Part shown: in pieces, positions 1 through 14,413 of the stretch
Layout of the letters: every line of letters starts with the position of its first letter
Position numbering within the stretch: the stretch's first letter is position 1
Source of the DNA: a virus
Lineage: Duplodnaviria; Heunggongvirae; Uroviricota; Caudoviricetes
Reading direction: 5' to 3' (one strand)
IMG/VR virus record: IMGVR_UViG_2663762810_000008
Length of the DNA: 14,413 nt
Notes under the pieces: generated by a model
What the model was told of the DNA's origin: nothing
The model's database searches: none
What the model saw: the letters and a program-made list of their open reading frames with translations, nothing else
Translations under genes and position numbers: made by a program

Positions 1-319
1 TTGCCTCCCCCCCGTTGATGGGTAAAATAGCCGCAATTTTTCGTTTTCAACAAGCGCGGCGCGATGCCGCTTACTCAAGAAGAAAGAATTATGACGTTGT
101 CTCCTTATTTGCAAGAGGTGGCGAAGCGCCGCACTTTTGCCATTATTTCTCACCCCAATAATTAATCCCAAATTAAAGCTCTTTTACTCTTTCAAAATCC
201 TTTCAGTTAATTGAGGTCTGGTTATATAACTCATTTAAATACATATAGTTATGTGGCTTCTTTAATTGAAAATTCTTTCATGTAACTTTAAATCGATCAG
301 GTTGCTTTCATCAAAAATC

Positions 320-376
320 TGTACATATGCTTGTACATAATGTACAAAGCAGCAGAGGTGTTTTGCGATTTGTACA
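320..376. promoter_or_regulatory. Four copies of the palindromic hexamer TGTACA (320-325, 332-337, 341-346, 371-376) immediately upstream of the integrase start; candidate operator or integrase/accessory-protein binding array
   Basis: Direct: four exact TGTACA copies within 57 bp ending 10 bp before the integrase ATG at 386. Function is inference. Confidence 0.3.
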
Positions 377-385
377 AGGTGAGTA

Positions 386-1609
386 ATGGCGCTGTCTGAT
401 GCGTGGTTGCGTTCAGTCGTTGGAAAGGAACGTGATAAGGTTTTGGTTAAATCCGATCGTGATGGTCTGTCTGTCAGAGTATCACCGAAAGGTCGCGTAG
501 TGTTTCAATATCGTTATCAATGGGCAGGGAAAGGTGAGCGTCTTGATATCGGAACTTACCCGGCAACTGGATTAAAAGAGGCCAGAGAAGAAGTTATCCG
601 TCTCCGTGGTGAACTCGAGTCAAACCGTAATCCACGATTGGTCAAGCAGGCTGAAAAACGAAAAGCTACTGAAGCCATGACGGTAGAGTCTGTGATCCGT
701 GCCTGGTATGAAGCATATTGTGTAAAAAATAAAAAGGGTTCTGAACAGATACTCCGCTCGTTTGAGCTGCACCTGTTCTCTAAAATCGGGAATATCCCTC
801 ACGATGCAGCTACATTGCATGATTGGTTAGAAGTCCTGGAGCCTCTTAGCACTAAGACTCCAGCAATAGCAGACCGATTGCTAATTAACGCAAAGCAGGC
901 CCATGTCTGGGCGTATAAGAGAAAGCTTATTGAAACTCGCCCGCTGTCGGATATCACGGGTAAAGATATGGATATCCGTAAAGGTCAGAAGAAACGGTTT
1001 CTGACACACGATGAAATTAAAATTCTTTATGCTGCGATCGATGGCTCTAGAATGGTTCCCAAATACCGGGCCTTCATTAAACTATTACTGCATTTTGGTT
1101 GCCGTAGTTCGGAGCTAATTACTGCTAGGGTGGGTGATTTTGATTTCATAAATAAGGTATGGACTGTACCACCTGAACGACATAAGACAGGGGACATAAC
1201 AGGCGAACCGCTAAAGCGGCCCATTATTGAACCGGTTGAAGAGCTTATAAAATACGTTATCTCTATGAACAACGGTTCCGATATGCTTTTTACTAAGGAA
1301 GGAAGCAGGGAGCCAGTCGGTAGGACATCATTACAGTCGCTGCCTTACAATTTAATGCAGTACGCGTGGCGGCGTTTAGGATATCAATTCCCTCATTGGT
1401 CTCTTCATGACTTGAGACGGACAGCACGAACAAATTTTTCTGATCTTACTGCGCCTCATATCGCAGAAATTATGCTTGGTCATAAGCTGCCAGGGGTATG
1501 GCAAGTTTATGATAAGAGCGATTATCTAGAAGAACAGCGTAAAGCTTACCTGGCATGGTGGAAGAGGGTTGAATCGATTGTTAATTGTACTATCTCTGAT
1601 TCAAACTGA
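386..1609 (+). CDS. Tyrosine site-specific integrase, P4-like family
   Basis: 407-aa ORF with ATG start and AGGTGA ribosome-binding site upstream. N-terminal arm-binding-type region (ALSDAWLR...YRYQWAGKGERLDIGTYP), catalytic-region motifs HDLRRT and LGH, and a C-terminal tyrosine region (VWQVYDKSDY) typical of the family. Family call from motif memory, not a search. Confidence 0.9.
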   Translation: MALSDAWLRSVVGKERDKVLVKSDRDGLSVRVSPKGRVVFQYRYQWAGKGERLDIGTYPATGLKEAREEVIRLRGELESNRNPRLVKQAEKRKATEAMTVESVIRAWYEAYCVKNKKGSEQILRSFELHLFSKIGNIPHDAATLHDWLEVLEPLSTKTPAIADRLLINAKQAHVWAYKRKLIETRPLSDITGKDMDIRKGQKKRFLTHDEIKILYAAIDGSRMVPKYRAFIKLLLHFGCRSSELITARVGDFDFINKVWTVPPERHKTGDITGEPLKRPIIEPVEELIKYVISMNNGSDMLFTKEGSREPVGRTSLQSLPYNLMQYAWRRLGYQFPHWSLHDLRRTARTNFSDLTAPHIAEIMLGHKLPGVWQVYDKSDYLEEQRKAYLAWWKRVESIVNCTISDSN

Positions 1610-1894
1610 CGGTTTGTATCACCTGAACATAACCAAATCTCCTAGCACACTTTGAGCGAGATGTGAGCGTTAAGTTTACGCCATTGTGTTGACATAAGAG
1701 GGCACGGGTATAGATATCATCACTATCCCTATGCCCCTAAATCGCTCCTGCTATTTGATAAATGCAGATGTTTACCACCAAATGTTTTTGATACTATAGG
1801 TTGATTCATGATTTACCTAGAAACTTAGTTGTAACGAAAACTTCTTAACGGACACTATCTGGATAAAGTTAGTTTTTTATTTAAGAGGGTTAAC

Positions 1895-2614
1895 ATGTCA
1901 AAGTTAAAAAATGAACCATTAGTAAGGGTATCAGAAGAAGACGGAATAGAAATAAGGAAGATCCAATATCCAGATAATACGATAGAAAGAGTTTATAAGC
2001 AGAAAGGTGTAATATTACCACGAATACCTTTAAAAGGCCGCTTTGTAGAACAATATGTGGCCTTACAGTTGCTGGATAAAGATCTTCGGAATGTTATTGG
2101 TTGGGAGAATATAATAAAAAACATTTGTAATAACATTAATAGAGAACAACACTTTATTTATCCTGATTTAGAAAAGAATCTAATATTAAAGTCTTTATTT
2201 ATATCAAAAGTTGTTACTTACGGTAAGTGTTTTACAGAGGCGAAAGGGCGTCGATTCACATTGCAGAGAAAGCATGTGCCAGAAAAATACAGAGATTTAC
2301 ATGATTCTATTATGAATGTTAGACATAACTTTGCTGCCCATAAAGGTGAATTTGAATATGATCAATGTGGCTTGGTTTTAATATTGCCGGGGACCAAGAA
2401 AAAAAGGTGCTATCATATTTTTTCAGAACTCAATCAAATAAATTATGGTAATAATGAGGAAGATGATGAACGTTTTTTTATGTTATATGATTCACTGCGT
2501 AAAGTCATTAAAGAAAAACGAGATAAATTAATTGATAAAATATACGCTGAAAAGATTCATACTCAAACAATGGAGTATTGGTTGAGCCGAACAGGAAAAG
2601 AAACAGAGATTTAA
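1895..2614 (+). CDS. Hypothetical protein, 239 aa, AT-rich orphan gene with no family recognised; candidate accessory or defence cargo
   Basis: Clean ORF with ATG start and AGAGGG 5 nt upstream. Codon usage is visibly AT-rich (Lys/Asn/Ile/Glu-rich protein) compared with the flanking integrase and early operon. No transmembrane segment, P-loop or other motif recognised; an R-x5-H match (RHNFAAH, aa 143-149) is too degenerate to call HEPN. Confidence 0.6.
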   Translation: MSKLKNEPLVRVSEEDGIEIRKIQYPDNTIERVYKQKGVILPRIPLKGRFVEQYVALQLLDKDLRNVIGWENIIKNICNNINREQHFIYPDLEKNLILKSLFISKVVTYGKCFTEAKGRRFTLQRKHVPEKYRDLHDSIMNVRHNFAAHKGEFEYDQCGLVLILPGTKKKRCYHIFSELNQINYGNNEEDDERFFMLYDSLRKVIKEKRDKLIDKIYAEKIHTQTMEYWLSRTGKETEI

Positions 2615-2810
2615 TTTGTTCAGTATATAAAAGCTAATTTTTAAGGAGTAATTTTCAGATGATTAAAGCTGATTACATTGCGATAGGTACTCTACGACTA
2701 ACTTTTCAACAAGAGTAAGGGGGTAATCAATTTTATTTGTATCAATGGTATGACATTTCTTGGCGATAATGTTTTGATCTTATCGATTCATGTCATATGG
2801 TCATTGGTAA

Positions 2811-2842
2811 CGTCCGCTCTTGTTAAAGAGTGGACGCTCAGA
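2811..2842 (+). terminator. Candidate intrinsic terminator for the orphan-gene transcript
   Basis: Direct: 11-bp stem (2811-2821 with 2826-2836, loop GTTA) that is perfect in the plus-strand RNA through one G-U pair but has a C-A mismatch on the minus strand, followed by a moderately T-rich tail (GATTTGGTTTGG). Confidence 0.35.
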
Positions 2843-2896
2843 TTTGGTTTGGCATCTAATCATAGATGTGTCAGCTCACATCTAAGCTAATACATA

Positions 2897-3091
2897 TTAA
2901 TCAATCACTCCCGCAAATCTGTAAATCTTGTGTGATGCCCATTTATTTGGGCAGGATTTAATATCAGGATCTGGAAAGTCAGGCCTGTATTTCTGGCCAG
3001 TTCTCCTGTTTACGCTGTTCCAGCGAAGAACTGTCGATACTGAAACACCACAGAAATCGGCGACTTGTTTAGTTGTCATTAAGTTGTTCAT
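2897..3091 (-). CDS. Excisionase/AlpA-family helix-turn-helix DNA-binding protein
   Basis: 64-aa ORF; segment TTKQVADFCGVSVSTVLRW resembles excisionase/AlpA-type HTH proteins. Start ATG overlaps the upstream stop as TAATG (translational coupling). Confidence 0.65.
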   Translation of the reverse strand: MNNLMTTKQVADFCGVSVSTVLRWNSVNRRTGQKYRPDFPDPDIKSCPNKWASHKIYRFAGVID

Positions 3092-3711
3092 TACTTCACC
3101 TCCTGCGGCGGCTCCGGTAGCGGCATCCAGTGGGTTACTTTCGATGCCGGTTCTTCCCCATTGTCAGTAACTGCCCACCATTTGTTTCTCGAACAATCGT
3201 AATACCCTTCGAAGGTATCGTACTCAGTCCAGCCGTAAGACTTACCCCAACACCAAACATACTGTTTATCGTTCGGCATTCGCTCACTACAGCTTATCCA
3301 ACCATCCGGAGTTACCGGAGAGTTGCCCGACAGCTCGTTCAACTTGTAAGTCTGGCTTACAGGTTCGGCACCATTAAGCATGGCGGCGCGGCAGGCGTTC
3401 CAGCCTTCATCAAAGCCGACTATGCCATTATTTAAAGACGGACGAGCATCTGGCACCACCGGCACTGGCTTGGCTATATATAGCGGCTGAACATACCAGC
3501 CCTTTGATAACCAACTGTCAGCAATGTTTTTACTCCTCGTTATTGCCGGAATACCTAAGCCATTTTCTGAATGCAGCCATGCCACCGGCTCCTCTTCTAG
3601 CGATGCCAGAGCAATTTCATAAGCACGGCGCTCAATATCGTCTCGAACCTCTAGGCTGCTGATTCGTTCTTTGATTTCTTTAATCAGTTCTTTATTGGTA
3701 AATGTGGTCAT
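3091..3711 (-). CDS. DUF551-like prophage protein
   Basis: 206-aa ORF with C-terminal W-rich motif KWWAVTDNGEEP...THWMPLPEPP, remembered as characteristic of DUF551 (YfdS-like) prophage proteins. TAATG overlap with the upstream gene. Confidence 0.65.
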   Translation of the reverse strand: MTTFTNKELIKEIKERISSLEVRDDIERRAYEIALASLEEEPVAWLHSENGLGIPAITRSKNIADSWLSKGWYVQPLYIAKPVPVVPDARPSLNNGIVGFDEGWNACRAAMLNGAEPVSQTYKLNELSGNSPVTPDGWISCSERMPNDKQYVWCWGKSYGWTEYDTFEGYYDCSRNKWWAVTDNGEEPASKVTHWMPLPEPPQEVK

Positions 3712-4073
3712 TATGCTCCAGCCTCCGGCGCTTTTGGCATTACTGCCCAGTGAGTGATATTGAAGTTTTCAAGGTCCCCGACCTGAAATGTCCACTGCCA
3801 TTCTCCGGTTTCTTTTTGTCCCCAGGTGTACCAGAGAGAACGCCAGCCAATCAGCCAGCCTTCTCCGTTAGCATCAAATAACAGAACACTTTCATTTGCT
3901 GGTGGCAGTTCAGCTGACACTGGTATTATTTTGTTTTCCAGTGCCGCACATTTAGCTTCAAGCGCGTCGAATTTACGTACCAGGTACTCAGCATTTGTTT
4001 CGTTCACTTTCAGATCTCGCGGTACACATTTACCGCGAAGAAACCCTTCCATTTCGAAAACATTCATGCGCAT
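3711..4073 (-). CDS. Small DUF551-like paralog
   Basis: 120-aa ORF ending in ITHWAVMPKAPE, similar to the C-terminus of the adjacent gene. GGAG ribosome-binding site 8 nt upstream of the ATG at 4073; overlaps the upstream gene by 10 nt. Confidence 0.55.
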   Translation of the reverse strand: MRMNVFEMEGFLRGKCVPRDLKVNETNAEYLVRKFDALEAKCAALENKIIPVSAELPPANESVLLFDANGEGWLIGWRSLWYTWGQKETGEWQWTFQVGDLENFNITHWAVMPKAPEAGA

Positions 4074-4600
4074 TTGCGTAACTCCGATAACTCGTTAAAA
4101 CGTTCCATAAACATCCCGTAGGCATGGCTAGGTGCCAGTGGAATCACGTTGAACATCTCTGTTGCCGGGATGCCTTCCAGTACAGGCCAGAAAGAGCCAT
4201 CATCAAGCCCGAGATCGCGGCGTTCGGTTGCCAGCATGATAAGATCGGCATATTTCACGGGCGTACTCATAACTGGGGGTAACCCGTATTTCTCACGGAT
4301 TACGGCGTCAATTTTTTCTTCCATCCGTTTATAGTCAGGAAGAAGGCGTTTCAGTGGAGCGGGAATATCCTGGCAATACGCTTCTGTTGCATCATGCATT
4401 AACGCTTCAAAAGCAAATTCCTGCGGCACCAGCTGGCTGCAAAGCACCGCATGTTGGGCGACACTGTAGAAGTGAGAAAGATGACCGGCAAAGCGGCAGA
4501 TATTTGAAAGGGAAACCGCGATATCGTTAATCACGATGTCGTCTTTATTTATCTTGTCATAATAAAAATGCTTCCCGGAAAAAGTTTTAATAAATGACAT
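4064..4600 (-). CDS. HD-domain phosphohydrolase (YfdR-like 5'-deoxynucleotidase family)
   Basis: HD motif (ALMHDATEAY) plus upstream His (FAGHLSH). The track ORF begins at a GTG at 4627; the first ATG (4600, MSFIKTFSGKHFYYDK) has a GGAG site 6 nt upstream and is taken as the start (178 aa). Confidence 0.75.
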   Translation of the reverse strand: MSFIKTFSGKHFYYDKINKDDIVINDIAVSLSNICRFAGHLSHFYSVAQHAVLCSQLVPQEFAFEALMHDATEAYCQDIPAPLKRLLPDYKRMEEKIDAVIREKYGLPPVMSTPVKYADLIMLATERRDLGLDDGSFWPVLEGIPATEMFNVIPLAPSHAYGMFMERFNELSELRKCA

Positions 4601-4727
4601 TTTGTTCTCCACGTATATGCGCTGCACCGCGCTGAGTTTGGGTAAAAGGAAGCCCTCACCATCCGGTGATTATTGAGTTAATTACGTTTCCATAAATGCC
4701 CCCGCAGGGGCATTTGCAGTAATGAAA

Positions 4728-5345
4728 TCAGGCGGTGAAAGTACCAATAAAGGTTTCTACTTTGCTGTCTTTGAATTTCTCAACAAGCAGATCACGAAAT
4801 TCGTTAGCCATATCTTCCTGCACCGCTTCCAGCTGAATAATGCGCAGAACCAGTACAGGACGATCGCCAGTGATAATGCTGAGGCGTAATTTAAACGGAC
4901 GTTCTTTCAGACCTTCAAACGGAACGCATTTAATTTCAAATGCCACTGGCATAATGTCTTTGGTCTTCGCTTCGACAGATTCCATCAGGGAGCGTTTGCC
5001 GCTGAAGTCATTATCTTCAAAATCAGCGGTCTGGTTTGCTTCAATCGTGATTTTACGGACTGCCGCAGCTGCTTTTGTTGCCTGAATAGCGTCACCATTA
5101 GCATCAAAGCCCACAAGGTAGTCGGCCCAGTCTTCAATCCATTCTGCCAGTGACTTCTGGGAGTTACGCTCGCCGTTAACAGACAACAGGGCAGAGAACG
5201 GTGCTGTCTTTTTCAGTTTGAGAGTGGCGGTGTTATCTGCGTGACCTGGTTCATCAATAGTACCCAGGTTAAGTACACTGACGGCACGCATATTATCAGC
5301 ATCGATAAAGGTATTGTCCTGGATGAAAAAAGGACCCGGCTTCAT
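4728..5345 (-). CDS. DUF2303/YfdQ-like prophage early protein
   Basis: 205-aa ORF; resemblance to YfdQ-type proteins is from memory and uncertain. The 5' end lies antisense to the Q-homologous sequence, so the true start may be an internal Met (for example at 5291). Confidence 0.55.
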
Positions 5346-5561
5346 GGCGCGCCTGTTTATAAGATTTGTGGGCGTTGCAATGGAAACCGGTTTAGTCGTT
5401 TACCAACGACACTGGCGCGGTGTCATGTCCAGAAGCTGGTACCAGACCTGACTGATTATCAGTGGTACAAAGGATATGCAGATGTCATTGATAAACTGGT
5501 TACAAAGTGCTGGCAGGAAGAAGCATATGCTGAGGTGCAATTAAGAAAAGTGACGAGATAA
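5331..5561 (+). pseudogene. 5'-truncated lambda-type Q antiterminator remnant (C-terminal ~70 aa only)
   Basis: Translation [76 protein letters not shown] matches the remembered C-terminus of phage lambda Q (…ECGRCKGVGYSRMPASAAYRAVTMLIPNLTQPTWSRTVKPLYDALVVQCHKEESIADNILNAVTR). No in-frame start exists after the overlap with the opposite-strand gene. Confidence 0.6.
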
Positions 5562-5592
5562 ATGATTTTCGCCGAAGATGGCGACGTAATGC

Positions 5593-5621
5593 TTGCATTT
5601 TTCAAAAAATATGGATAAAAT
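5593..5621 (+). promoter_or_regulatory. Sigma-70-type promoter in the position of a late promoter pR'
   Basis: Direct: TTGCAT (5593-5598), 17-bp spacer, TAAAAT (5616-5621), about 30 bp downstream of the Q-remnant stop. Assignment as pR' is by position. Confidence 0.45.
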
Positions 5622-5666
5622 TTTTTCAACGATGGGCTTTATATACCCGACGTTAAGAAAAAGTAG

Positions 5667-5691
5667 AAAACCCGCTGATGAGCGGGTTTTT
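5667..5691. terminator. Intrinsic terminator hairpin in the position of tR', bidirectional in form
   Basis: Direct: AAAACCCGCT-GATG-AGCGGGTTTT; GC-rich stem (CCCGCT/AGCGGG) flanked by an A-run and a T-run, about 45 nt downstream of the predicted promoter. Confidence 0.6.
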
Positions 5692-5976
5692 GTGCTTTAA
5701 ATAGGGTAATAGAGATGTTGAATCTCATTCCGGGATTCATGTTTGTTTACTTATTATTTATCGGGTGACTTTGCCTGATGTTTAAAATGTTTTCTTCCAG
5801 TACTATGTCCCTAGATACAATGAGTCTGCATATTACATTATTAGCAGAGCTATTACGGTCAAAGTACAGCATAAGCTTTTAAAGCCAATCAACCAGTCAT
5901 CAAGACAGACGGGGTTATTCATGAAAACTCTCCATGTTTGATTCGATGGGGCCTGAAATTAAAGCTTTAATATAGC

Positions 5977-6189
5977 TCATGAAAGGTAAACATTGGCAGC
6001 TGAAGGGCCACGCAGACCATTTATCCGGCAAAATTCCACGCGTAATCCGGTGGTAATTTCTTCTGCATCGCGGAGATTGAGCGCTGAAACATGAAGCTGG
6101 ACATCGATACGACCATCGGATGGGGTGATAAGACCCTTGCCGCTTTTGCCGTCAAAGGTTTTGACAATTCCTGTCATTTTACGGGACAA
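5977..6189 (-). CDS. cspF: CspA-family cold-shock protein, CspF/CspH subtype
   Basis: Translation (M)[26 protein letters not shown]...[21 protein letters not shown] matches remembered CspF/CspH. The codon at 6189 is TTG, with an AAGGA site 7 nt upstream; the first in-frame ATG is at 6177. Divergent from cspB, as in Qin-type prophages. Confidence 0.8.
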
Positions 6190-6489
6190 AAAAATTCCTT
6201 AATACTGATAACTGGGCGCACTATACACACGTTCCTGAAGAAAGCTATAGTTTTTTGATGGGGTTGAAGATGGCTGGATGTCTAAAATAAACATTGCTTC
6301 ATATGTTCAACTATGCGTTAATGATTGCGTCGGTTTGAAGAACAGACGATATACGAAGTAGTTTACTAAAGCAGTTCTCATTTCAGGTGTTATTCACTTA
6401 TTCCTTCTTTGAGTCTCTCCAATTAAGTACGAAGTCGTTTCTGTTATACAAGCCATTTATGCCGAAAGGCTCAAGTTAAGGAATGTAGA

Positions 6490-6705
6490 ATGTCAAATAA
6501 AATGACTGGTTTAGTAAAATGGTTTAACGCTGATAAAGGTTTTGGCTTTATTTCTCCTGTTGATGGTAGTAAAGATGTGTTTGTGCATTTTTCTGCGATT
6601 CAGAATGATAATTTTCGAACCTTATTTGAAGGTCAAAAGGTTACCTTCTCTGTAGAGAGTGGTGCTAAAGGTCCTGCAGCAGCAAATGTCATAATTACTG
6701 ATTAA
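6490..6705 (+). CDS. cspB: Cold-shock protein CspB
   Basis: 71-aa translation [53 protein letters not shown]... carries the RNP1/RNP2 motifs of the cold-shock domain; AAGGAA ribosome-binding site and a long AT-rich 5' leader. Confidence 0.9.
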
Positions 6706-6986
6706 AATTCATAGTTTGTCTGTATACGATAACGAAGAAGGCTGATGCCTGAGTGGAGATACAGACAGAGTGGTGAATATTGGATCTCTTTAATAAATAG
6801 TAAGGAGGTCCAATACATGAAACAATGGCCAGCATATTTGGCAATAACTTAATCAGGAAAAGTATGCTAACCATTGTGGTGAAGTGCAGGTTTGCTGCAT
6901 GAATAGTTTTACAGCAGAAGCTAACTGCTGGCATAGCAAAACAAAGTGCGTAAGTGGATGACTCCCACAAAAAGTACCACAATATT

Positions 6987-7009
6987 AAACCCGCTCAGGC
7001 GGGTTTTTT
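6987..7009 (+). terminator. Intrinsic terminator downstream of cspB
   Basis: Direct: AAACCCGC-TCAG-GCGGGTTT followed by six T (7004-7009). Confidence 0.6.
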
Positions 7010-7068
7010 ATTATCTGCTTTAAATATGTTATTAAAATATAAAAAATACTTGTTACGAATAAAATCAA

Positions 7069-7239
7069 TCAAGCTACAGCTTTAAGATTTGTCTGGAATA
7101 CTTTGTTGCAATGAGGGCAGATCAAAAGGGCACCTTTTTGTACTCTTGAAAAACTGTGTTCTGACTCTTGGGTGCAGTTTGGGCAGGAACATTTAACGAG
7201 ATAATTACGGCGTGATTTTGAGTCTTTACGTTCTGACAT
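7069..7239 (-). CDS. Small zinc-ribbon protein (two CxxC pairs), 56 aa
   Basis: Translation MSERKDSKSRRNYLVKCSCPNCTQESEHSFSRVQKGALLICPHCNKVFQTNLKAVA has CPNC and CPHC pairs. AGGAAA site 6 nt upstream of the ATG at 7239; the longer track ORF (start 7290) has no ribosome-binding site. Confidence 0.45.
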   Translation of the reverse strand: MSERKDSKSRRNYLVKCSCPNCTQESEHSFSRVQKGALLICPHCNKVFQTNLKAVA

Positions 7240-7457
7240 AGGCTTTTCCTGTATAAATGGCCGTATACAGTACACTAAATATGAAAACATATCTCGTATT
7301 ATTATTTAATATATGATTTTCTTTTAAAATAATTACCCACATTTTTAATGTGTCTGTTTTTTAGCGCCGTTGAGAACAACGTTTGCTATAAAAACTAACC
7401 CATAGACTCCGATCTTTTCAAACATATTGCACCATCTGTGTACATCGGGGTGAGGAT

Positions 7458-7673
7458 ATGAAATCAATGGATAAGTTAACAACAGGTATCGCCTATGGCA
7501 CATCGGCTGGTAATGCTGGTTTCTGGGCATTGCAGTTACTCGATAAAGTAACTCCGTCACAGTGGGCTGCAATCGGTGTGCTGGGTAGTCTGGTTTTTGG
7601 CCTGCTGACGTATCTGACAAACCTTTATTTCAAGATTAAAGAAGACAGGCGTAAGGTTGCGAGAAGAGAGTAA
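7458..7673 (+). CDS. essQ: Phage 21 S-type pinholin (class II holin) with dual-start motif
   Basis: 71-aa translation [71 protein letters not shown] matches the remembered S21 pinholin; two hydrophobic segments; Met1-Lys-Ser-Met4 gives antiholin/holin dual starts; GAGGAT ribosome-binding site. Confidence 0.9.
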
Positions 7674-7677
7674 TCCA

Positions 7678-8229
7678 ATGACACAAGACTATGAACTGGT
7701 TGTGAAAGGAGTCCGCAATTTTGAGAATAAAGTGGCGGTAACTGTAGCCTTACGGGACAAAAAACGCTTTGACGGTGAAATTTTTGACCTGGACATCTCG
7801 CTGGACCGTGTTGAAGGTGCCGCGCTGGAGTTTTATGAGGCAGCAGCCAGAATGAGAATCAGACAGGTATTCCTGGATGTTGCTGCCGGGTTATGTGTAG
7901 GGGATGAGCAGTCGCCGGAAAAGCGCCCCATAATTTTAGAGGCGCAGAATGTGTGGATAACCTACAAAGGAAAGCTACCGGGAAGAATTACTGGTTCTCT
8001 GAAGACGCCACCGACGGCATTGCGGTCAGAAAAAGATGATATTGAATCGCCCATTGAAAAACTGGAGGGCAGCGTCGCTGATCTGAATAAAAAATTGTCG
8101 GTGCTGATCCCTTCTGAAGATGAAAAAAAACGCCGCGATGAGCAGTTTGCGGCGTTTTACGATTATTGCATTGAAGTTACTCGCAGGAATTTTGTGAAGA
8201 TTTTTGAGGAGGGTAAATCTCTTCAGTAA
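7678..8229 (+). CDS. Hypothetical protein between holin and endolysin (possibly YdfR/DUF1327-like, C-terminally extended)
   Basis: ATG at 7678, 4 nt after the holin stop (MTQDYELVVKGVRNFENKV...). The track start at 7657 overlaps the holin and is less likely. Resemblance to the small ydfR-type ORF of Qin-like lysis cassettes is from memory and not verified. Confidence 0.55.
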   Translation: MTQDYELVVKGVRNFENKVAVTVALRDKKRFDGEIFDLDISLDRVEGAALEFYEAAARMRIRQVFLDVAAGLCVGDEQSPEKRPIILEAQNVWITYKGKLPGRITGSLKTPPTALRSEKDDIESPIEKLEGSVADLNKKLSVLIPSEDEKKRRDEQFAAFYDYCIEVTRRNFVKIFEEGKSLQ

Positions 8230-8437
8230 GCTTAATGGCGGACGCTGCAATTAATTCAGGAAGGTCCGCAAGGTCATCTGTCAGTGGATATGATGAAAAA
8301 TCGGCGGCAGTTCTGTTAAGAAGCGCTTTAACTAATTCCTTTTCCTTCTCCGGCAACAAGTTGATTAGAGCTACGACTGCTTGCCTGAGTGCGATTAAAT
8401 CAGCAAAAGTTTGTTTTGGTAGATTTGTGTAATCCAT
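8177..8437 (-). CDS. Hypothetical protein, 86 aa, convergent with and overlapping the 3' end of the preceding ORF
   Basis: ORF MDYTNLPKQTFADLIALRQAVVALINLLPEKEKELVKALL... with a protein-like helical composition; fills an otherwise ~320-bp gap ahead of the endolysin. Start ATG at 8437 (track lists the GTG at 8443). No family recognised. Confidence 0.3.
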   Translation of the reverse strand: MDYTNLPKQTFADLIALRQAVVALINLLPEKEKELVKALLNRTAADFSSYPLTDDLADLPELIAASAIKLTEEIYPPQKSSQNSCE

Positions 8438-8550
8438 AGTCACCTCTGTGTTTATCAGATTGACATCCTCCTCCCGCCAGTGCCCATCACTGGTGAGGTA
8501 AGATTTAACATATCCGGGGATTTGAAGCCGATAAATCCTGATAAATATCC

Positions 8551-9578
<1,028 letters not shown>

Positions 9579-9941
9579 ATTAATATTAAATCGGATTATT
9601 TTTAGCGCTGAATGTGAAATTTAAATAAAAAGGACTCTTCCATGAGTCAAAATCCTTGAAATCTTAAGGGTAAGATAAAAGGTCATTAGACAGAATGACA
9701 CGTTTTATTAATAAATAAAGCTATTGTTTCATTCGTGTGTTTTTCTTTACAAAAGTAATCCTTGCTATGGTTGGTTAATCATGCGTTAATGGTGTTCTGG
9801 TTTGTTACAAAATTATCTGAAGCAGTCATTGTTATAATTTTATTATTTGTACCTCTTGAGATCTCCTTGTTGGTTTTTCTCTCTGATATTTTTTTTCGGA
9901 CCATTCTGCCCAAGGGCTAACTTCTTCAAAAGGTAATAATG

Positions 9942-10154
9942 ATGTCTAACAAAATGACTGGTTTAGTGAAATGGTTTAACCCTGAAAAAGGTTTTGGTTT
10001 CATCACGCCGAAAGATGGTAGCAAAGATGTGTTTGTCCATTTCTCAGTTATTCAGAGCAACGATTTCAAAACGTTAACTGAGAATCAGGAAGTCGAATTT
10101 GGTATTGAGAACGGACCTAAAGGCCCCGCGGCTGTTCATGTAGTGGCACTTTGA
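9942..10154 (+). CDS. cspI: Cold-shock protein CspI
   Basis: Translation [70 protein letters not shown] matches remembered CspI. Tandem ATGs at 9939 and 9942; long AT-rich 5' leader. Confidence 0.9.
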
Positions 10155-10358
10155 GGTAGAAAATATTACAAACCATATTCACTTTAGATGCCCGTGTTGC
10201 CATGGTTCTCAGTATAGAACATCATCTTTTGATGTTTCTGACAGGAATCCTTTCGGGGCAAAATGTATCTTTTGTAAATCAATGATGATTACATTTGATA
10301 ATATTTCACAATACTTAAATGTTAGCCGTCTGTCGTTAGATTTAAGAAAGTGAAAATG

Positions 10359-10381
10359 AAGGCTCCTTCGGGAGCTTTTTT
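10359..10381 (+). terminator. Intrinsic terminator downstream of cspI
   Basis: Direct: AAGGCTCC-TTCG-GGAGCTT stem with a UUCG tetraloop, followed by six T (10376-10381). Confidence 0.6.
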
Positions 10382-10425
10382 GCTTAGTGTCTAGTCGATG
10401 GATACTCACATATTACGGTAACATT

Positions 10426-10656
10426 ATGAAAAAAATAATAGTTTTTTTTAACTCTGAACCAGCAATGGTAGTGCCAGTGATGACCGGAGTTAACACCATC
10501 ATGCGTGAATATCCAAATGGCGAAACAACACACCTCACTGTAATGGCTGCAGGGTTTCCATCTCTGACCGGAGATCATAAAGTCATTTATGTAGCAGCGG
10601 ATCGACATGTAACTTCAGAAGAAATTCTGGAAGCAGCAATGAGACTCTTGAATTGA
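10426..10656 (+). CDS. Hypothetical small protein, 76 aa
   Basis: ORF MKKIIVFFNSEPAMVVPVMTGVNTIMREYPNGE... in the cspI-gnsB interval. The first ATG in frame is 10426 (track start 10387 is a GTG abutting the terminator T-run). No clear ribosome-binding site. Confidence 0.4.
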   Translation: MKKIIVFFNSEPAMVVPVMTGVNTIMREYPNGETTHLTVMAAGFPSLTGDHKVIYVAADRHVTSEEILEAAMRLLN

Positions 10657-10825
10657 TTTGATTCTAATGCATTGATAATAAATGATAATCATCTTTATCT
10701 GTTTGTGTGAAATTTAGACCGTCGTATGTTGATTATTGCGATGTTTCATCTTATCTTTTATACGTTTGCTCCATATAATTGACACTACTGTGTACCAGGA
10801 AAGTCATAACAGACTAAAAGAGGAA

Positions 10826-11002
10826 ATGATGAACATTGAAGAGTTAAAAACAAAAACAGAAGCAGATATTTCTGAATATATAACAAAAAAAATCATTGAG
10901 CTTAAGAAAAAGACCGGGAAAGAAGTTACCAGTATCCAGTTTACTGCACGGGAAAAAATGACTGGTCTTGAAAGCTATGATATCAAGATTGATTTAATCT
11001 AG
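10826..11002 (+). CDS. gnsB: GnsA/GnsB-family small protein
   Basis: 58-aa translation MMNIEELKTKTEADISEYITKKIIELKKKTGKEVTSIQFTAREKMTGLESYDIKIDLI matches the remembered GnsA/GnsB pattern. AAAAGAGGA ribosome-binding site; the longer track ORF is an upstream extension. Confidence 0.75.
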   Translation: MMNIEELKTKTEADISEYITKKIIELKKKTGKEVTSIQFTAREKMTGLESYDIKIDLI

Positions 11003-11067
11003 TATGTTTATAGTATTAGCATCAATTTCTCATCAGATGCTATTCAACAATACAAATTACCCATAAA

Positions 11068-11087
11068 CCTCGTTTTTACGGGGTTTT
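11068..11087 (+). terminator. Weak candidate terminator after the gnsB-like gene
   Basis: Direct: CCTCGT-TTTT-ACGGGG (6-bp stem including one G-U pair) followed by four T. Confidence 0.3.
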
Positions 11088-11297
11088 GTTATATTTAAAC
11101 ATTACCGAATAGATATAAATCTCGATTGTCGATGGTATTGGTTGTGTGACAATACCTAGTCTTTCCGGTATGCCTGAAGAGAATACAAACGACAGATTAT
11201 GTAAGGGAAACGCGCTGAAACTTTCACTCTTTCATGCTGAGTGATTTGACGTTATATTTTTAGCCGCAAGTGAAGAGCAAACGCATGGAGCGACAAA

Positions 11298-11504
11298 ATG
11301 CATAAAGATCAATACACTGATGCCCCCTCCCAGGAGCAGGTTCGTGTAAAAACTATGCTTAATAGCACCATTTCGATGGGTTACCCGGATGTTGTAATTG
11401 CATGTATAGAACATCAAGTATCTCTGGAAGCATTCAGGGCAATTGAGGCCGCGTTAGTAAAGCACGATAAGAATACGAAGGATTATTCCCTGGTGGTTGA
11501 CTGA
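11298..11504 (+). CDS. Hypothetical small prophage protein, 68 aa
   Basis: ORF with ATG start and GGAG site 8 nt upstream; lies just upstream of the cos/terminase region where small conserved ORFs sit in related cryptic prophages (recollection, uncertain). Confidence 0.5.
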
Positions 11505-11849
11505 TCACCATAACTGCTAACCATTCTGACCATTTCACAAGTGACAGAGTCAATATCGTATTCTGTCACTGTCAGGCTAATACAGTACTGCAATTCAACT
11601 ACAGCAATGCCTCGTATTTAGGTGAATTTACAATATCGTCCAGTTCGGATGCCGGCTGCATTTCTGAAGATAAGGCATTTCGGTTCGCGTATTTTCCCCT
11701 CATGCTCGTCAGTCCTGCGCGTAGTAAGAAACAGGACACTCACACTAATTTGTGTGGGCATGCTGTGATGTCCTTCTGAATTATCCCCACGCCATTATGT
11801 AAAGCTCTGTTTCAGATGCTCGTCACGGTTGTCAGGCTGTCGGGTCCTC

Positions 11850-12000
11850 CCTGGGGGGGGCCCTGCCACGGGGCGGGAGCGTCGCGGAAAAAGGCTAGTT
11901 TTTGCATTTTTATCGGCCACCATCATCTTTGCATCTTATTGATTATTAATGGTTGTTTGTTTTTTGTATGTCGAATTGAGTGTTTTTTGTTCGACATCGA
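11850..12000. other. cos-like DNA packaging site (putative cosN plus cosB-like inverted elements) upstream of the small terminase
   Basis: CCACGGGGCGGGAGCGTCGCGG (about 11866-11887) resembles the lambda cosN neighbourhood (ACGGGGCGGCGACCTCGCGGG, from memory). G8 run at 11853-11860. Inverted elements ATGTCGAA (11968-11975) and TTCGACAT (11990-11997) parallel the oppositely oriented R3/R2 sites of lambda cosB. Confidence 0.4.
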
Positions 12001-12056
12001 ACGCGTTTTCTTAAAGTTGTTCGCACGATGCATGTTTAAAGCTCTCCGGAGGAAAT

Positions 12057-12548
12057 ATGGATCATGAGTTGAAAAACCTGGTGCTGAATATTAATCAACT
12101 GGCGGCTTTATCTGGTCTGCACCGCCAGACTGTCGTGGCAAGACTGAAAAACATTCGTCCCGCTGGTGGACATGACAAACTCAAGCTATACCGGTTGACC
12201 GATATTCTGACTGAATTTATGGGGTTACCACCGCCGGTTGCTGAGGGCGAAATGGATCCACATGAACGCAAAGCCTGGTATCAGTCTGAACGTGAGCGTC
12301 TTAAGTTCGAACAGGAAACGGCACAACTCATTCCGGCCAGTGATGTCAGACGGGAGTTTGCCATCTGGGCAAAAGCGGTCGTGCAGGTGCTGGAGACATT
12401 ACCGGATATTCTGGAACGTGACTGCGGCCTGCAGCCTGCCGCTGTGAGCCGTGTTCAGTCCATTATTGATGATCTGCGCGATCAGATAGCCCTGCGGGTG
12501 ACCGAAGCAGGTGCGGATGATGAGGAGGAATTACAGCAGGAGGAGTAA
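12057..12548 (+). CDS. Terminase small subunit, Nu1-like
   Basis: 163-aa ORF with N-terminal HTH-like segment (LVLNINQLAALSGLHRQTVVARLKN) and acidic C-terminus; GGAGGA ribosome-binding site; stop overlaps the large-subunit start as TAATG; located just downstream of the cos-like site. Confidence 0.8.
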   Translation: MDHELKNLVLNINQLAALSGLHRQTVVARLKNIRPAGGHDKLKLYRLTDILTEFMGLPPPVAEGEMDPHERKAWYQSERERLKFEQETAQLIPASDVRREFAIWAKAVVQVLETLPDILERDCGLQPAAVSRVQSIIDDLRDQIALRVTEAGADDEEELQQEE

Positions 12549-14170
12549 TGCTGAATCAGGAAACCGCAAAGGCAGCACGAACCGATTCAGGTTATATCCT
12601 TCGCGCACCGAGACGAATGCGGGTTGCTGATGCCGTTGCTCAGTATATGCGGGTGCCCATGGGGGCCGGGAACTCAGTCCCGTGGGATCCGCTGGTGGCA
12701 CCGTATGTTATTGAGCCGATGAACTGCCTGGCCTCGCGTGAATACGACGCAGTGATATTTGTTGGCCCGGCACGAACTGGCAAGACTATCGGCCTGATTG
12801 ACGGCTGGGTGATTTACAACGTGATTTGCGATCCTGCTGATATGCTGATCATTCAGATGACGGAGGAAAAAGCCCGCGAACACTCCAAAAAACGACTTGC
12901 CAGAACGTTTCGCGTCAGCCCGGAAGTGGTCAGTCGCCTGAGTCCGAACAAAAATGACAACAACGTTTATGACAGAACATTCCTTGCTGGCAACTACCTG
13001 AAAATCGGCTGGCCGTCAGTCAATATCATGTCCTCATCAGATTATAAATGCGTGGCGCTGACGGATTATGACCGTTTTCCGGAAGATATTGATGGCGAGG
13101 GGGATGCCTTCTCTCTTGCCTCAAAACGTACCACCACATTTATGTCCAGTGGTATGACGCTGGTGGAGAGTTCCCCCGGCAGGGATGTGAAGGATGTGAA
13201 ATGGCGACGGACTTCACCGCATGAGGCTCCACCAACCACGGGGATACTGTCGCTCTATAACCGTGGCGATCGCCGTCGCTGGTACTGGCCCTGTCCACAC
13301 TGTGGTGAGTATTTTCAGCCCTGCGGCGATGTGGTTGCTGGTTTCCGTGATATTGCCGATCCCGTGCTGGCAAGTGAGGCGGCTTATATTCAGTGTCCTT
13401 CCTGTTCAGGACGGATTATGCCTGAACAAAAACGTGAGCTGAACGGACGTGGGGTCTGGTTGCGGGATGGTGAATCCATCAATGCGGATGGCAGTCGTTA
13501 TGGTGATCCCCGACGCTCACGTATTGCGTCATTCTGGATGGAGGGTCCGGCAGCTGCTTACCAGACACTCTCGCAACTCGTTTACAAACTGCTTGCTGCA
13601 GAACAGGAATACGAGACAACCGGAAGTGAAGAAACACTCAAGACGGTTATCAATACCGACTGGGGATTACCTTATCTTCCCCGTGCCAGCATGGAGCAAC
13701 GAAAAAGTGAACTGCTTGAGCAGCGGGCAGAGCCAGTTCCTTCCCGCAGTGTGCCGGATGGCGTTAATTTCCTGGTGGCGACAGTTGATGTGCAGGCGGG
13801 ACGTCATCGCCGTTTTGTGGTTCAGGTAACGGGCTATGGCAGCCGTGGCGAACGCTGGATTATTGATCGTTACAACATCACGCAGTCATTGCGCGGTGAC
13901 AGCGACGGGGAGAGCCAGCGAATTGATCCGGCCAGCTATCCGGAAGACTGGGATGTCCTGCTGACGGATGTTTTTCATAAAAGCTGGCCGCTGGCCTCCG
14001 ATCCTTCTCAACAAATGCGACTGATGGCAATGGCGGTGGACTCCGGCGGTGAAGACGGAGTCACTGATAATGCCTATAAATTCTGGCGTCGTTGCCGTCG
14101 TGATGGCCTTGGTAAACGTATTTACCTGTTTAAGGGCGACAGCATCCGGCGCGCAAAACTGATCACCCGT
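12548..14170 (+). pseudogene. Terminase large subunit (lambda gpA family), truncated after about 541 codons
   Basis: Manual translation from the ATG at 12548 shows no stop through the window end, which is why it is absent from the ORF track. Walker A (GPARTGKT), CPHCG zinc-finger-like motif, and blocks matching remembered lambda gpA (VATVDVQ...RWIIDRYNI; AVDSGGEDG...LFKGDS). The 3' boundary is approximate (plus or minus about 15 bp). Confidence 0.75.
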
Positions 14171-14413
14171 ATACGCGTGAATGAATGGTTCAGCGCGTAT
14201 GCGATGGCGGGTGTGGCTTACAGCCGTGTGTCGACTTTCTCCGGGGATTATCTCCGCGTAACTGACAACAAGGGGAAAACGCACGATGTGCTGACCGGAA
14301 GTGATGACGGTCGCCACAGCAACACGTCTCTGGCGTGGGGGGCTGGCGTGCAGTTTAACCCGACCGAATCCGTGGCCATTGATATTGCTTATGAAGGCTC
14401 CGGCAGTGGTGAC
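14171..14413 (+). pseudogene. lom: 3' fragment of a lom/ail/ompX-family outer-membrane protein gene, fused in frame to the truncated terminase; runs off the window end
   Basis: Translation VNEWFSAYAMAGVAYSRVSTFSGDYLRVTDNKGKTHDVLTGSDDGRHSNTSLAWGAGVQFNPTESVAIDIAYEGSGSGD carries the Ail/Lom/OmpX C-terminal signature (compare OmpX GAGLQFNPMENVALDFSYEQSR). No signal peptide or N-terminal strands are present. Confidence 0.7.

Follow-up and report, generated by a model that had tools for sequence, protein, structure and literature searches.

A defective lambdoid prophage at prfC of Escherichia coli, probably derived from a 2H10-type parent by two deletions

Introduction

Insertion of lambdoid and Shiga toxin 1 (Stx1) phages into prfC, with replacement of the 5′ end of the gene, has already been described (PMC2323221), and phage 2H10 (Lambda_2H10; NC_049950.1/LR595862.1; Glaedevirus; 46,288 bp) is an exemplar virus of the International Committee on Taxonomy of Viruses (PMC12945033). 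A survey of incomplete prophages found that release and packaging genes are preferentially lost (PMC7744054). Here, we analyze IMG/VR virus record IMGVR_UViG_2663762810_000008, a stretch of 14,413 nucleotides (hereafter, the window, meaning the whole stretch), which contains the left part of a prophage remnant located at prfC in Escherichia coli. With a probability of about 0.88, this remnant is an ordinary defective lambdoid prophage that descends from a 2H10-type parent through two deletions, and the surviving genes are those that lay outside the two holes. It is already known in kind, falls within well-described prophage biology, and matters little beyond correct annotation.

Location of the remnant in prfC

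The entire window (14,413/14,413 bases) matches contig UGAU01000003.1 of E. coli assembly GCA_900448675.1 at 100% identity; positions beyond 14,413 on this source contig are given in extended window numbering and are called window-continued. The prophage remnant is 20.7 kb long (window 142 to window-continued 20891), and the window contains its left 14.3 kb (Table 1). Window position 1 directly follows the stop codon of yjjG, the native prfC ATG lies at 91, and 21 complete codons (91–153) plus two bases are stranded at the left attachment site (attL). The 14-mer attL core, ATTATTTCTCACCC, occurs once in phage 2H10 as the phage attachment site (attP), which consists of the left half of attR (the right attachment site) and the right half of attL, and the cores of all three sites agree. 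Because the core repeats 20.7 kb further on, inside a prfC gene with a phage-supplied 5′ end, and because attP is a hybrid of the two ends, the prophage is placed in the 5′ end of prfC. Its true start is the attL core at 142–155 and not position 386, where an earlier reading made from the sequence alone (hereafter, the sequence-only reading) had begun the element. With direct att repeats, collinearity with a complete temperate phage, and missing lytic functions, the element is a defective prophage.

Integration splits prfC: its native promoter and ribosome-binding site stay behind at attL with the first 21 codons, cut off from the rest of the gene. The functional copy begins at attR (window-continued ~20830–20891) with a phage-encoded N-terminus and a phage-derived upstream region, in line with the published account (PMC2323221); annotation of the downstream prfC should record a phage-supplied 5′ end.

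Two deletion junctions

Three blocks of the contig align with 2H10: window 114–5310 (98.96%), window 5306–11403 (99.67%), and window-continued 14174–20891 (98.77%). Between the first two blocks, there is a clean gap (junction 1), where the contig has no counterpart to 8,303 bp of 2H10. The missing DNA encodes the first ~80 codons of yfdQ, yfdP, a cI-like repressor, cro, CP76/YmfL, Ash, a replication protein, PerC, a LexA-like protein, RusA, KilA-N, DUF968/HNH, and the first two thirds of the antiterminator gene Q. What remains on the two sides was delimited by tblastn: yfdQ′ covers residues 81–274 of 2H10 YfdQ, and Q′ covers residues 167–250 of Q at 100% (window 5307–5558), in agreement with the sequence-only reading that no intact Q is left. 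The open reading frame (ORF) at 4728–5345 takes its start codon from antisense Q sequence, so that the product annotated as a 205-aa ‘CPS-53 protein’ is YfdQ in truncated form, started from a borrowed codon.

At junction 2, terL nt 1624 is joined to lom nt 314, and codon 541 of terL meets codon 105 of lom in a blunt join at which the parents share no bases. Relative to the map of the full-length prophage in strain 2013C-3264 (see below), 16,688 bp are absent (coordinates 1676 to 18365). The resulting terL-lom fusion ORF encodes 636 aa and ends 45 nt past the window (14458). In this chimera, the terminase ATPase and a partial nuclease domain are followed by the C-terminal half of the Lom barrel, which has no signal peptide. 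GenBank lists it as a terminase (STG44105.1, QMH82347.1); the 636-aa ‘terminase’ entries are really terL-lom fusions and should be annotated as such.

Both deletions break inside genes and leave fragments (yfdQ′, Q′, and terL′-′lom). Intragenic breakpoints of this kind would be expected from illegitimate recombination rather than from modular excision. The sequence-only reading had counted at least three deletion junctions: those near 5300–5345 and near 14170 correspond to the two described here (5306–5310 and 14171|14172), whereas the one placed within the lysis cassette is an ancestral insertion (see below). A consensus promoter scan returned fewer sites than shuffled sequence (22 vs. 30.7), and its hits, including a 9/12 match at junction 1 (5320–5292, minus strand), were left unused.

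Missing modules and flanking genes

The modules missing from the window were sought by tblastn in the window and 10 kb beyond. None of the early-gap proteins (yfdP, gp36, cI-like, cro, CP76/YmfL, Ash, gp41, the HTH_36 replication protein, PerC, LexA-like, RusA, KilA-N, and DUF968/HNH) produced a match in this range, nor did 19 + 13 head/tail proteins of two module types. Likewise, portal, capsid, tail tube, tape measure, and J had no tblastn match in the element or its flanks. To the left of the element are the host genes yjjG, rimI, holD, and rsmC. To the right of the window, the remainder of lom is followed by genes for a 1117-aa side tail fiber (stf), its assembly protein (tfa), and a Pin-type invertase, and by ydfK/ynaE, ynaM, and dinI. 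The right end continues from dinI through attR to prfC and osmY. Host genes in K-12 order stand on both flanks.

These results bear out the proposal of the sequence-only reading that immunity (cI/cro) and replication genes are gone. They also support real loss rather than rearrangement, since the finding that the reading had named as its refutation, the missing modules just outside the window in the same orientation, was not made: beyond the window edges, the search met host genes on the left and only the lom-to-dinI genes on the right in place of the missing modules. The stated absence of head and tail genes holds for the head and tail-shaft genes; as a general statement it is true only of the window, because stf and tfa lie just outside it. 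The claims of retention also fared well: the integrase is intact with all three of its domains, the excisionase-like gene encodes a full-length member of PHROG 1553, and the holin, endolysin, and RzpQ/RzoQ of the lysis cassette are intact. A cos site is present, though not with the lambda sequence, and so is an intact DUF1441 small terminase.

Packaging module and reconstruction of the parent

The 8,866 nt of window 5306–14171 are 100% identical to a full-length prophage in strain GPEC1222, and the terL′ fragment follows this prophage without mismatch up to 14171. In strain 2013C-3264, a full-length prophage of ~45.7 kb with every module occupies the same prfC site. The sum of the remnant and the two deletions (20.7 + 8.3 + 16.7 kb = 45.7 kb) matches the size of the full-length prophage.

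From position 11722 onward, the packaging module is one that also occurs in phages mEp460 and Tritos, and it is 100% identical to that of the GPEC1222 prophage. This sharp boundary, ~150 nt upstream of cos, indicates that cos and terminase travel as one exchange unit. The cosN-like site, GGGCGGGAGCGT, differs from lambda cosN, GGGCGGCGACCT, at 4/12 positions, whereas its flanks are lambda-like (ACG before, CGCGG after); a search with lambda cosN allowing ≤2 mismatches found nothing relevant. The site was recognized from the record of phage Tritos, which ends with ...GCCACG and starts with GGGCGGGAGCGTCGCGG, corresponding to window 11870|11871, and it lies ~175 nt upstream of terS. The GGGCGGGAGCGT variant accompanies the DUF1441/gpA terminase type. 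Three quarters of the large terminase gene survive, which the sequence-only reading had overlooked. Its description of the element as mosaic is borne out, but this mosaicism is normal lambdoid modularity and is older than the decay.

The parent was most probably a ~45.7-kb temperate 2H10-type (Glaedevirus) phage with a cos-terminase-head module of the mEp460/Tritos type. Two deletions, both probably by illegitimate recombination, turned it into the remnant. One, of 16.7 kb from terL to lom, took away every head and tail-shaft gene. The other, of 8.3 kb from yfdQ to Q, eliminated the repressor and cro along with the two early promoters, the genes for replication, those for RusA, KilA-N, and DUF968, and two thirds of Q. 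The lysis cassette is intact but deprived of its activator Q, and its genes are presumably silent. The int and xis genes, attL, and attR likewise persist intact, with xis cut off from its natural promoter and probably not expressed. Plausibly, deletion of the repressor is survivable only if the lytic pathway is crippled as well, which would act as a viability filter. Junction 1 fits such a filter because the deletion that took cI also took the two early promoters, the genes for replication, and most of Q.

Rarity, age, and order of the deletions

Junctions were searched in 5,426 complete RefSeq E. coli genomes, in a large assembly collection, and in a one-genome-per-species collection. Junctions 1 and 2 were present in 0/5,426 of the complete RefSeq genomes, and the junction-2 sequence had no exact match in the one-genome-per-species collection. 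In the large assembly collection, each junction-spanning protein was found on about six contigs. Junction 1 was recovered from independent assemblies (NCBI and Logan SRR36486897, ERR4843456, SRR2000275, and ERR4843458), and junction 2 from CP057470.1, UGAU01000003.1, ERR1010196, SRR2000275, and SRR11949413. An assembly artefact, or a rearrangement that moved the missing modules elsewhere in the genome, could in principle produce the same picture, but it is hardly credible given the recovery of both junctions on independent assemblies and the ordinary K-12-order host genes on both sides.

The parental prophage is widespread: some 5,400 blocks of the collection index list the exact Int protein, and among the places listed, the yjjG site was found at 10/10 and the standard early region came next at 9/10. 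The remnant thus arose recently from a very common prophage and is itself rare.

In CP057470.1, junction 2 is identical and the sequence agrees at 99.98% over 19 kb. Its early deletion differs (positions 2864–3286 of the CP057470.1 stretch, compared with window 5306–5561): it starts at the LexA-like gene, extends to Q nt 644, and leaves the last 110 nt of Q, which is less than the window retains. Because CP057470.1 shares junction 2 and not junction 1, junction 2 formed earlier, and the truncations of Q in the two lineages are independent. This locus thus documents prophage decay in clean, datable steps, with the morphogenesis genes going first and Q and the early region then being lost separately in each of two sister lineages.

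Lysis cassette

Compared with other lambdoid phages, the cassette carries ~510 nt between ydfR and rrrQ. Relative to K-12 Qin, 657 nt (7884–8540) stand in for 92 nt of Qin. The insertion (8014–8523) extends YdfR to 183 aa and holds an antisense gene, orf86 (8177–8437; 86 aa; PHROG 2572, unknown function). Full-length prophages and the phage isolate 2H10 have the same insertion, which led us to reject a deletion junction within the cassette. Since 2H10 is a functional phage and has the insertion, it is compatible with lysis. The lipobox of RzoQ (LTSC) aligns with that of K-12 RzoQ.

Cargo genes and selective retention

The sequence-only reading had noted that cold-shock paralogs are kept, as is the case for cspF, cspB, and cspI, and had interpreted the surviving set as selective retention of host-beneficial or mobilizable functions. 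According to such a domestication scenario, selection would have preserved the host-beneficial csp genes, GnsB, orf239, and tail fibers together with the parts needed for mobility. Consistent with this, cspB and cspI are autonomous, with cold-responsive leaders and terminators that work without Q, unlike the divergently placed cspF, for which the Rfam scan gave no match to a cspA-type thermoregulator leader. The older Qin prophage keeps the same block at another site, and its Csp proteins are 97–100% identical to those of the window, compared to 90–96% for the lysis proteins. Published surveys also report enrichment of integrase and tail-fiber genes and depletion of replication and packaging genes in incomplete prophages (PMC7744054). 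However, the phage isolate 2H10 carries the csp, ynfU, ymcF, ynfN, and gnsB genes and the lysis cassette in unchanged order, as do full-length prophages, and selection is not needed to explain why they are present. Because there are 0 substitutions in 8,866 nt relative to the full-length prophage, purifying selection is unreadable, no time having passed in which it could show. The junctions are rare among assemblies, and the deletion ends are intragenic and leave junk fragments. Moreover, the holin, endolysin, spanins, terS, and 3/4 of terL are kept without plausible host benefit, against the trend of the published surveys (PMC7744054). We therefore do not uphold the claim of selective retention and consider it unlikely, although it is the strongest of the alternatives. 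The most parsimonious reading of the surviving set is positional, two random-looking deletions having spared whatever lay outside them. The csp, ynfU, ymcF, ynfN, and gnsB genes are ordinary self-regulated phage cargo, and cold-shock and gnsB genes in such remnants should be read as inherited phage cargo and not as evidence of domestication.

The repeated loss of Q among lineages that share junction 2 can also be cited in favor of selection. Truncation of Q may have been favored because an inducible prophage without head and tail genes would kill its host for nothing, and the two losses, seen in only two lineages, may reflect selection against lysis by a dead prophage. With the same two lineages as its basis, we infer that such selection acts against lethal functions and not for beneficial ones.

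Some observations weigh against descent from a 2H10-type parent by two deletions that spared genes simply by position. No full-length prophage with exactly this left arm and packaging module at 100% was recovered, which is why the parent was reconstructed from two relatives. Five of five independent prfC remnants keep the Q-to-terS block and tail fibers, and K-12 Qin keeps the same block at 91–95% identity; repeated retention of this kind could reflect selection rather than chance.

Potential for mobilization

The two deletions may by chance have left a satellite in the making that is packaged, for example as a ~41-kb dimer, by a co-resident mEp460/Tritos-type phage, in which case the csp, gnsB, and orf239 cargo would be carried between strains; we consider this very improbable. 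An already nascent helper-dependent satellite-like element, in which int, xis, attL/attR, cos, and terS are the very set required to excise and to be packaged by a co-resident phage of like terminase specificity, is slightly less probable again. The attachment-site cores have survived intact, Int and Xis do not differ from the proteins of a functional phage, a cosN-like site stands beside an intact small terminase, and at 20.7 kb the element is about half a phage genome, such that a dimer would be expected to fill a head. Nevertheless, Pfam, PHROG, and tblastn searches found no replication or primase gene and no regulator in the element, and the 2H10 map shows that the early-left promoter expected to drive xis was deleted together with cI and cro. 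The gene fragments are typical of decay, and all junction-bearing contigs that are long enough to show flanks are located at yjjG/prfC (the others are too short to tell). The size also exceeds that of phage-inducible chromosomal islands (PICIs), which in enterobacteria are usually 10–15 kb. The xis gene ends the leftward early operon, whose promoter region is lost, and no replication function is present. The element may still excise, though probably seldom, and packaging by a helper is conceivable but unsupported.

Other genes of the left arm

Int contains the motifs HDLRR and LGH...Y and is 100% identical to 2H10 Int, and Xis is 100% identical to a 2H10 protein annotated as ‘excisionase’. The orf239 gene has no match in Pfam or PADLOC. 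Its family is small, confined to Enterobacteriaceae, and without family assignment, and its confidently predicted structure (predicted local distance difference test score of 86.5) is a helical bundle with small sheets. The int-xis slot it occupies is variable and holds a CHAT-domain protein in another strain.

Table 1 Features of the 14,413-nt window with positions, strands, and the evidence for each assignment
Feature	Position	Strand	Evidence
Host DNA: yjjG-prfC intergenic region and orphaned native prfC start	1–155	+	K-12-identical through 155, then diverges
attL core ATTATTTCTCACCC, 14-mer	142–155		Recurs at attR, window-continued 20878–20891
Tyrosine integrase (int), 407 aa, intact	386–1609	+	Pfam Arm-DNA-bind_3, Phage_int_M, Phage_integrase
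orf239, low-GC cargo gene in int-xis slot	1895–2614	+	PHROG 8440 (unknown function)
Excisionase (xis), 64 aa, intact	2897–3091	−	PHROG 1553 ‘excisionase’, E=6.4e-36, full length
DUF551 protein, 206 aa	3091–3711	−	Pfam PF04448
yfdS-like early-left gene, 120 aa	3711–4073	−	PHROG 583
yfdR 5′-deoxynucleotidase, 178 aa	4064–4600	−	PHROG 318 and gene calls on source contig
yfdQ′ (DUF2303), first ~80 codons gone	4728–5310	−	Pfam DUF2303, profile positions 77–269 only
Junction 1: yfdQ joined to Q, 5-bp microhomology TAAAG	5306–5310		Overlapping ends of BLAST matches; three-way comparison of sequences
Q′, last 84 codons of Qin-type antiterminator Q (250 aa in full)	5307–5561	+	Pfam Antiterm
cspF	5977–6189	−	Pfam CSD; 100% identical to K-12 CspF
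cspB with own cold-responsive leader (coding sequence 6490–6705)	6329–6768	+	Rfam RF01766, 156.5 bits; Pfam CSD
ynfU zinc-ribbon protein	7069–7239	−	Pfam PF23499
essQ class II holin, intact	7458–7673	+	Pfam Phage_holin_2_1
Long YdfR (DUF1327) variant, 183 aa	7678–8229	+	PHROG 2091 matched 1–183/183; same gene in 2H10
Insertion relative to other lambdoid phages, between ydfR and rrrQ, ~510 nt	8014–8523		510 nt replace 51 nt of two other lambdoid phages
rrrQ endolysin, intact	8551–9084	+	Pfam Phage_lysozyme
rzpQ spanin with embedded rzoQ lipoprotein (9274–9528), both intact	9081–9578	+	Pfam DUF2514
cspI with own cold-responsive leader (coding sequence 9942–10154)	9795–10200	+	Rfam RF01766, 116.8 bits; Pfam CSD
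ymcF/ynfQ (10165–10353), ynfN (10426–10656), gnsB (10829–11002)	10165–11002	+	RefSeq annotation of identical DNA; translations
ybcW-like 68-aa gene	11298–11504	+	PHROG 657; 85% nt identity to lambda 47742–48090
Mosaic boundary: 2H10-like left, mEp460/Tritos-type cos-terminase right	11721–11722		2H10 and another relative stop at 11721; GPEC1222 prophage continues at 100%
cosN-like site GGGCGGGAGCGT	11871–11882	+	Ends of phage Tritos genome record
Small terminase (terS; DUF1441), intact	12057–12548	+	Pfam PF07278; homologues so annotated in phages mEp460 and Ayreon
terL′, first 541/700 codons of gpA-type large terminase	12548–14171	+	Translation; Pfam GpA_ATPase, GpA_nuclease
Junction 2: terL nt 1624 joined to lom nt 314, blunt, in frame	14171–14172		Three-way terL/lom comparison
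′lom, C-terminal 95 codons of Lom	14172–14413	+	Translation, three-way comparison, tblastn

Comparison with known systems

Compared to phage 2H10, the remnant shares the attP core, the ydfR/orf86 insertion, and the 1117-aa tail fiber, and its Int, orf239, Xis, and DUF551 proteins are 100% identical. In contrast to this complete phage, the remnant is devoid of the 8.3-kb early region and of all head and tail-shaft genes, and its cos-terS-terL module is of another type, with a DUF1441 terS and a gpA-type terL that is 25% identical to 2H10 TerL. Phage species are usually delimited by 95% nucleotide identity over the full length. Here, ~18 kb of 46.3 kb align, the packaging module is non-homologous, and 25 kb are absent, and the remnant was therefore not assigned to the species Glaedevirus gv2H10.

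Like the PICIs of Enterobacteriaceae, the remnant combines an integrase and a cos site in a sub-genomic element. It differs from them in having no replication module, regulator, or capsid-redirection genes, and it is visibly a phage reduced by deletion that carries gene fragments. A PICI assignment was rejected on the grounds that the scanned ORFs contain no replication-module domain and that the only helix-turn-helix protein is the excisionase.

The sequence-only reading had suggested alignment to the cryptic prophages Qin and CPS-53, and this comparison proved apt, given that modules are shared at 91–98%, though the remnant is orthologous to neither. With CPS-53 (KpLE1), it shares yfdQ-yfdR-yfdS-yfdT at 97.9% identity to window 3587–5310. 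CPS-53, however, is located at argW, its IntS is 22% identical to the window Int, and its TorI is unrelated to the window Xis. An orthologue of CPS-53/KpLE1 was rejected on these points: a different site, 22% identity between Int and IntS, and no significant similarity of Xis to TorI.

The likeness to K-12 Qin extends to gene order (Q, ynfS, cspF, cspB, ynfU, essQ, ydfR, rrrQ, rzpQ/rzoQ, cspI, ynfQ, ynfN, and gnsB), with 95% identity over 5306–7883 and 91% over 8541–11139, and both are defective lambdoid remnants. Qin differs in its location between ydfJ and rspB, in its other, pseudogenized integrase, in its intact Q and retained dicA/dicC immunity region, and in having a short ydfR without the orf86 insertion and the packaging remnant nohA. 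Orthology with Qin was rejected because the element is located at yjjG/prfC, and BLAST of the Qin locus matches the late block only, with no match to intQ.

Compared to the lambdoid and Stx1 prophages in prfC, the remnant is defective and without stx genes, whereas the mode of insertion is alike: the prophage enters the 5′ coding end of the gene, and the phage gives release factor 3 (RF3) a new N-terminal coding stretch and upstream region.

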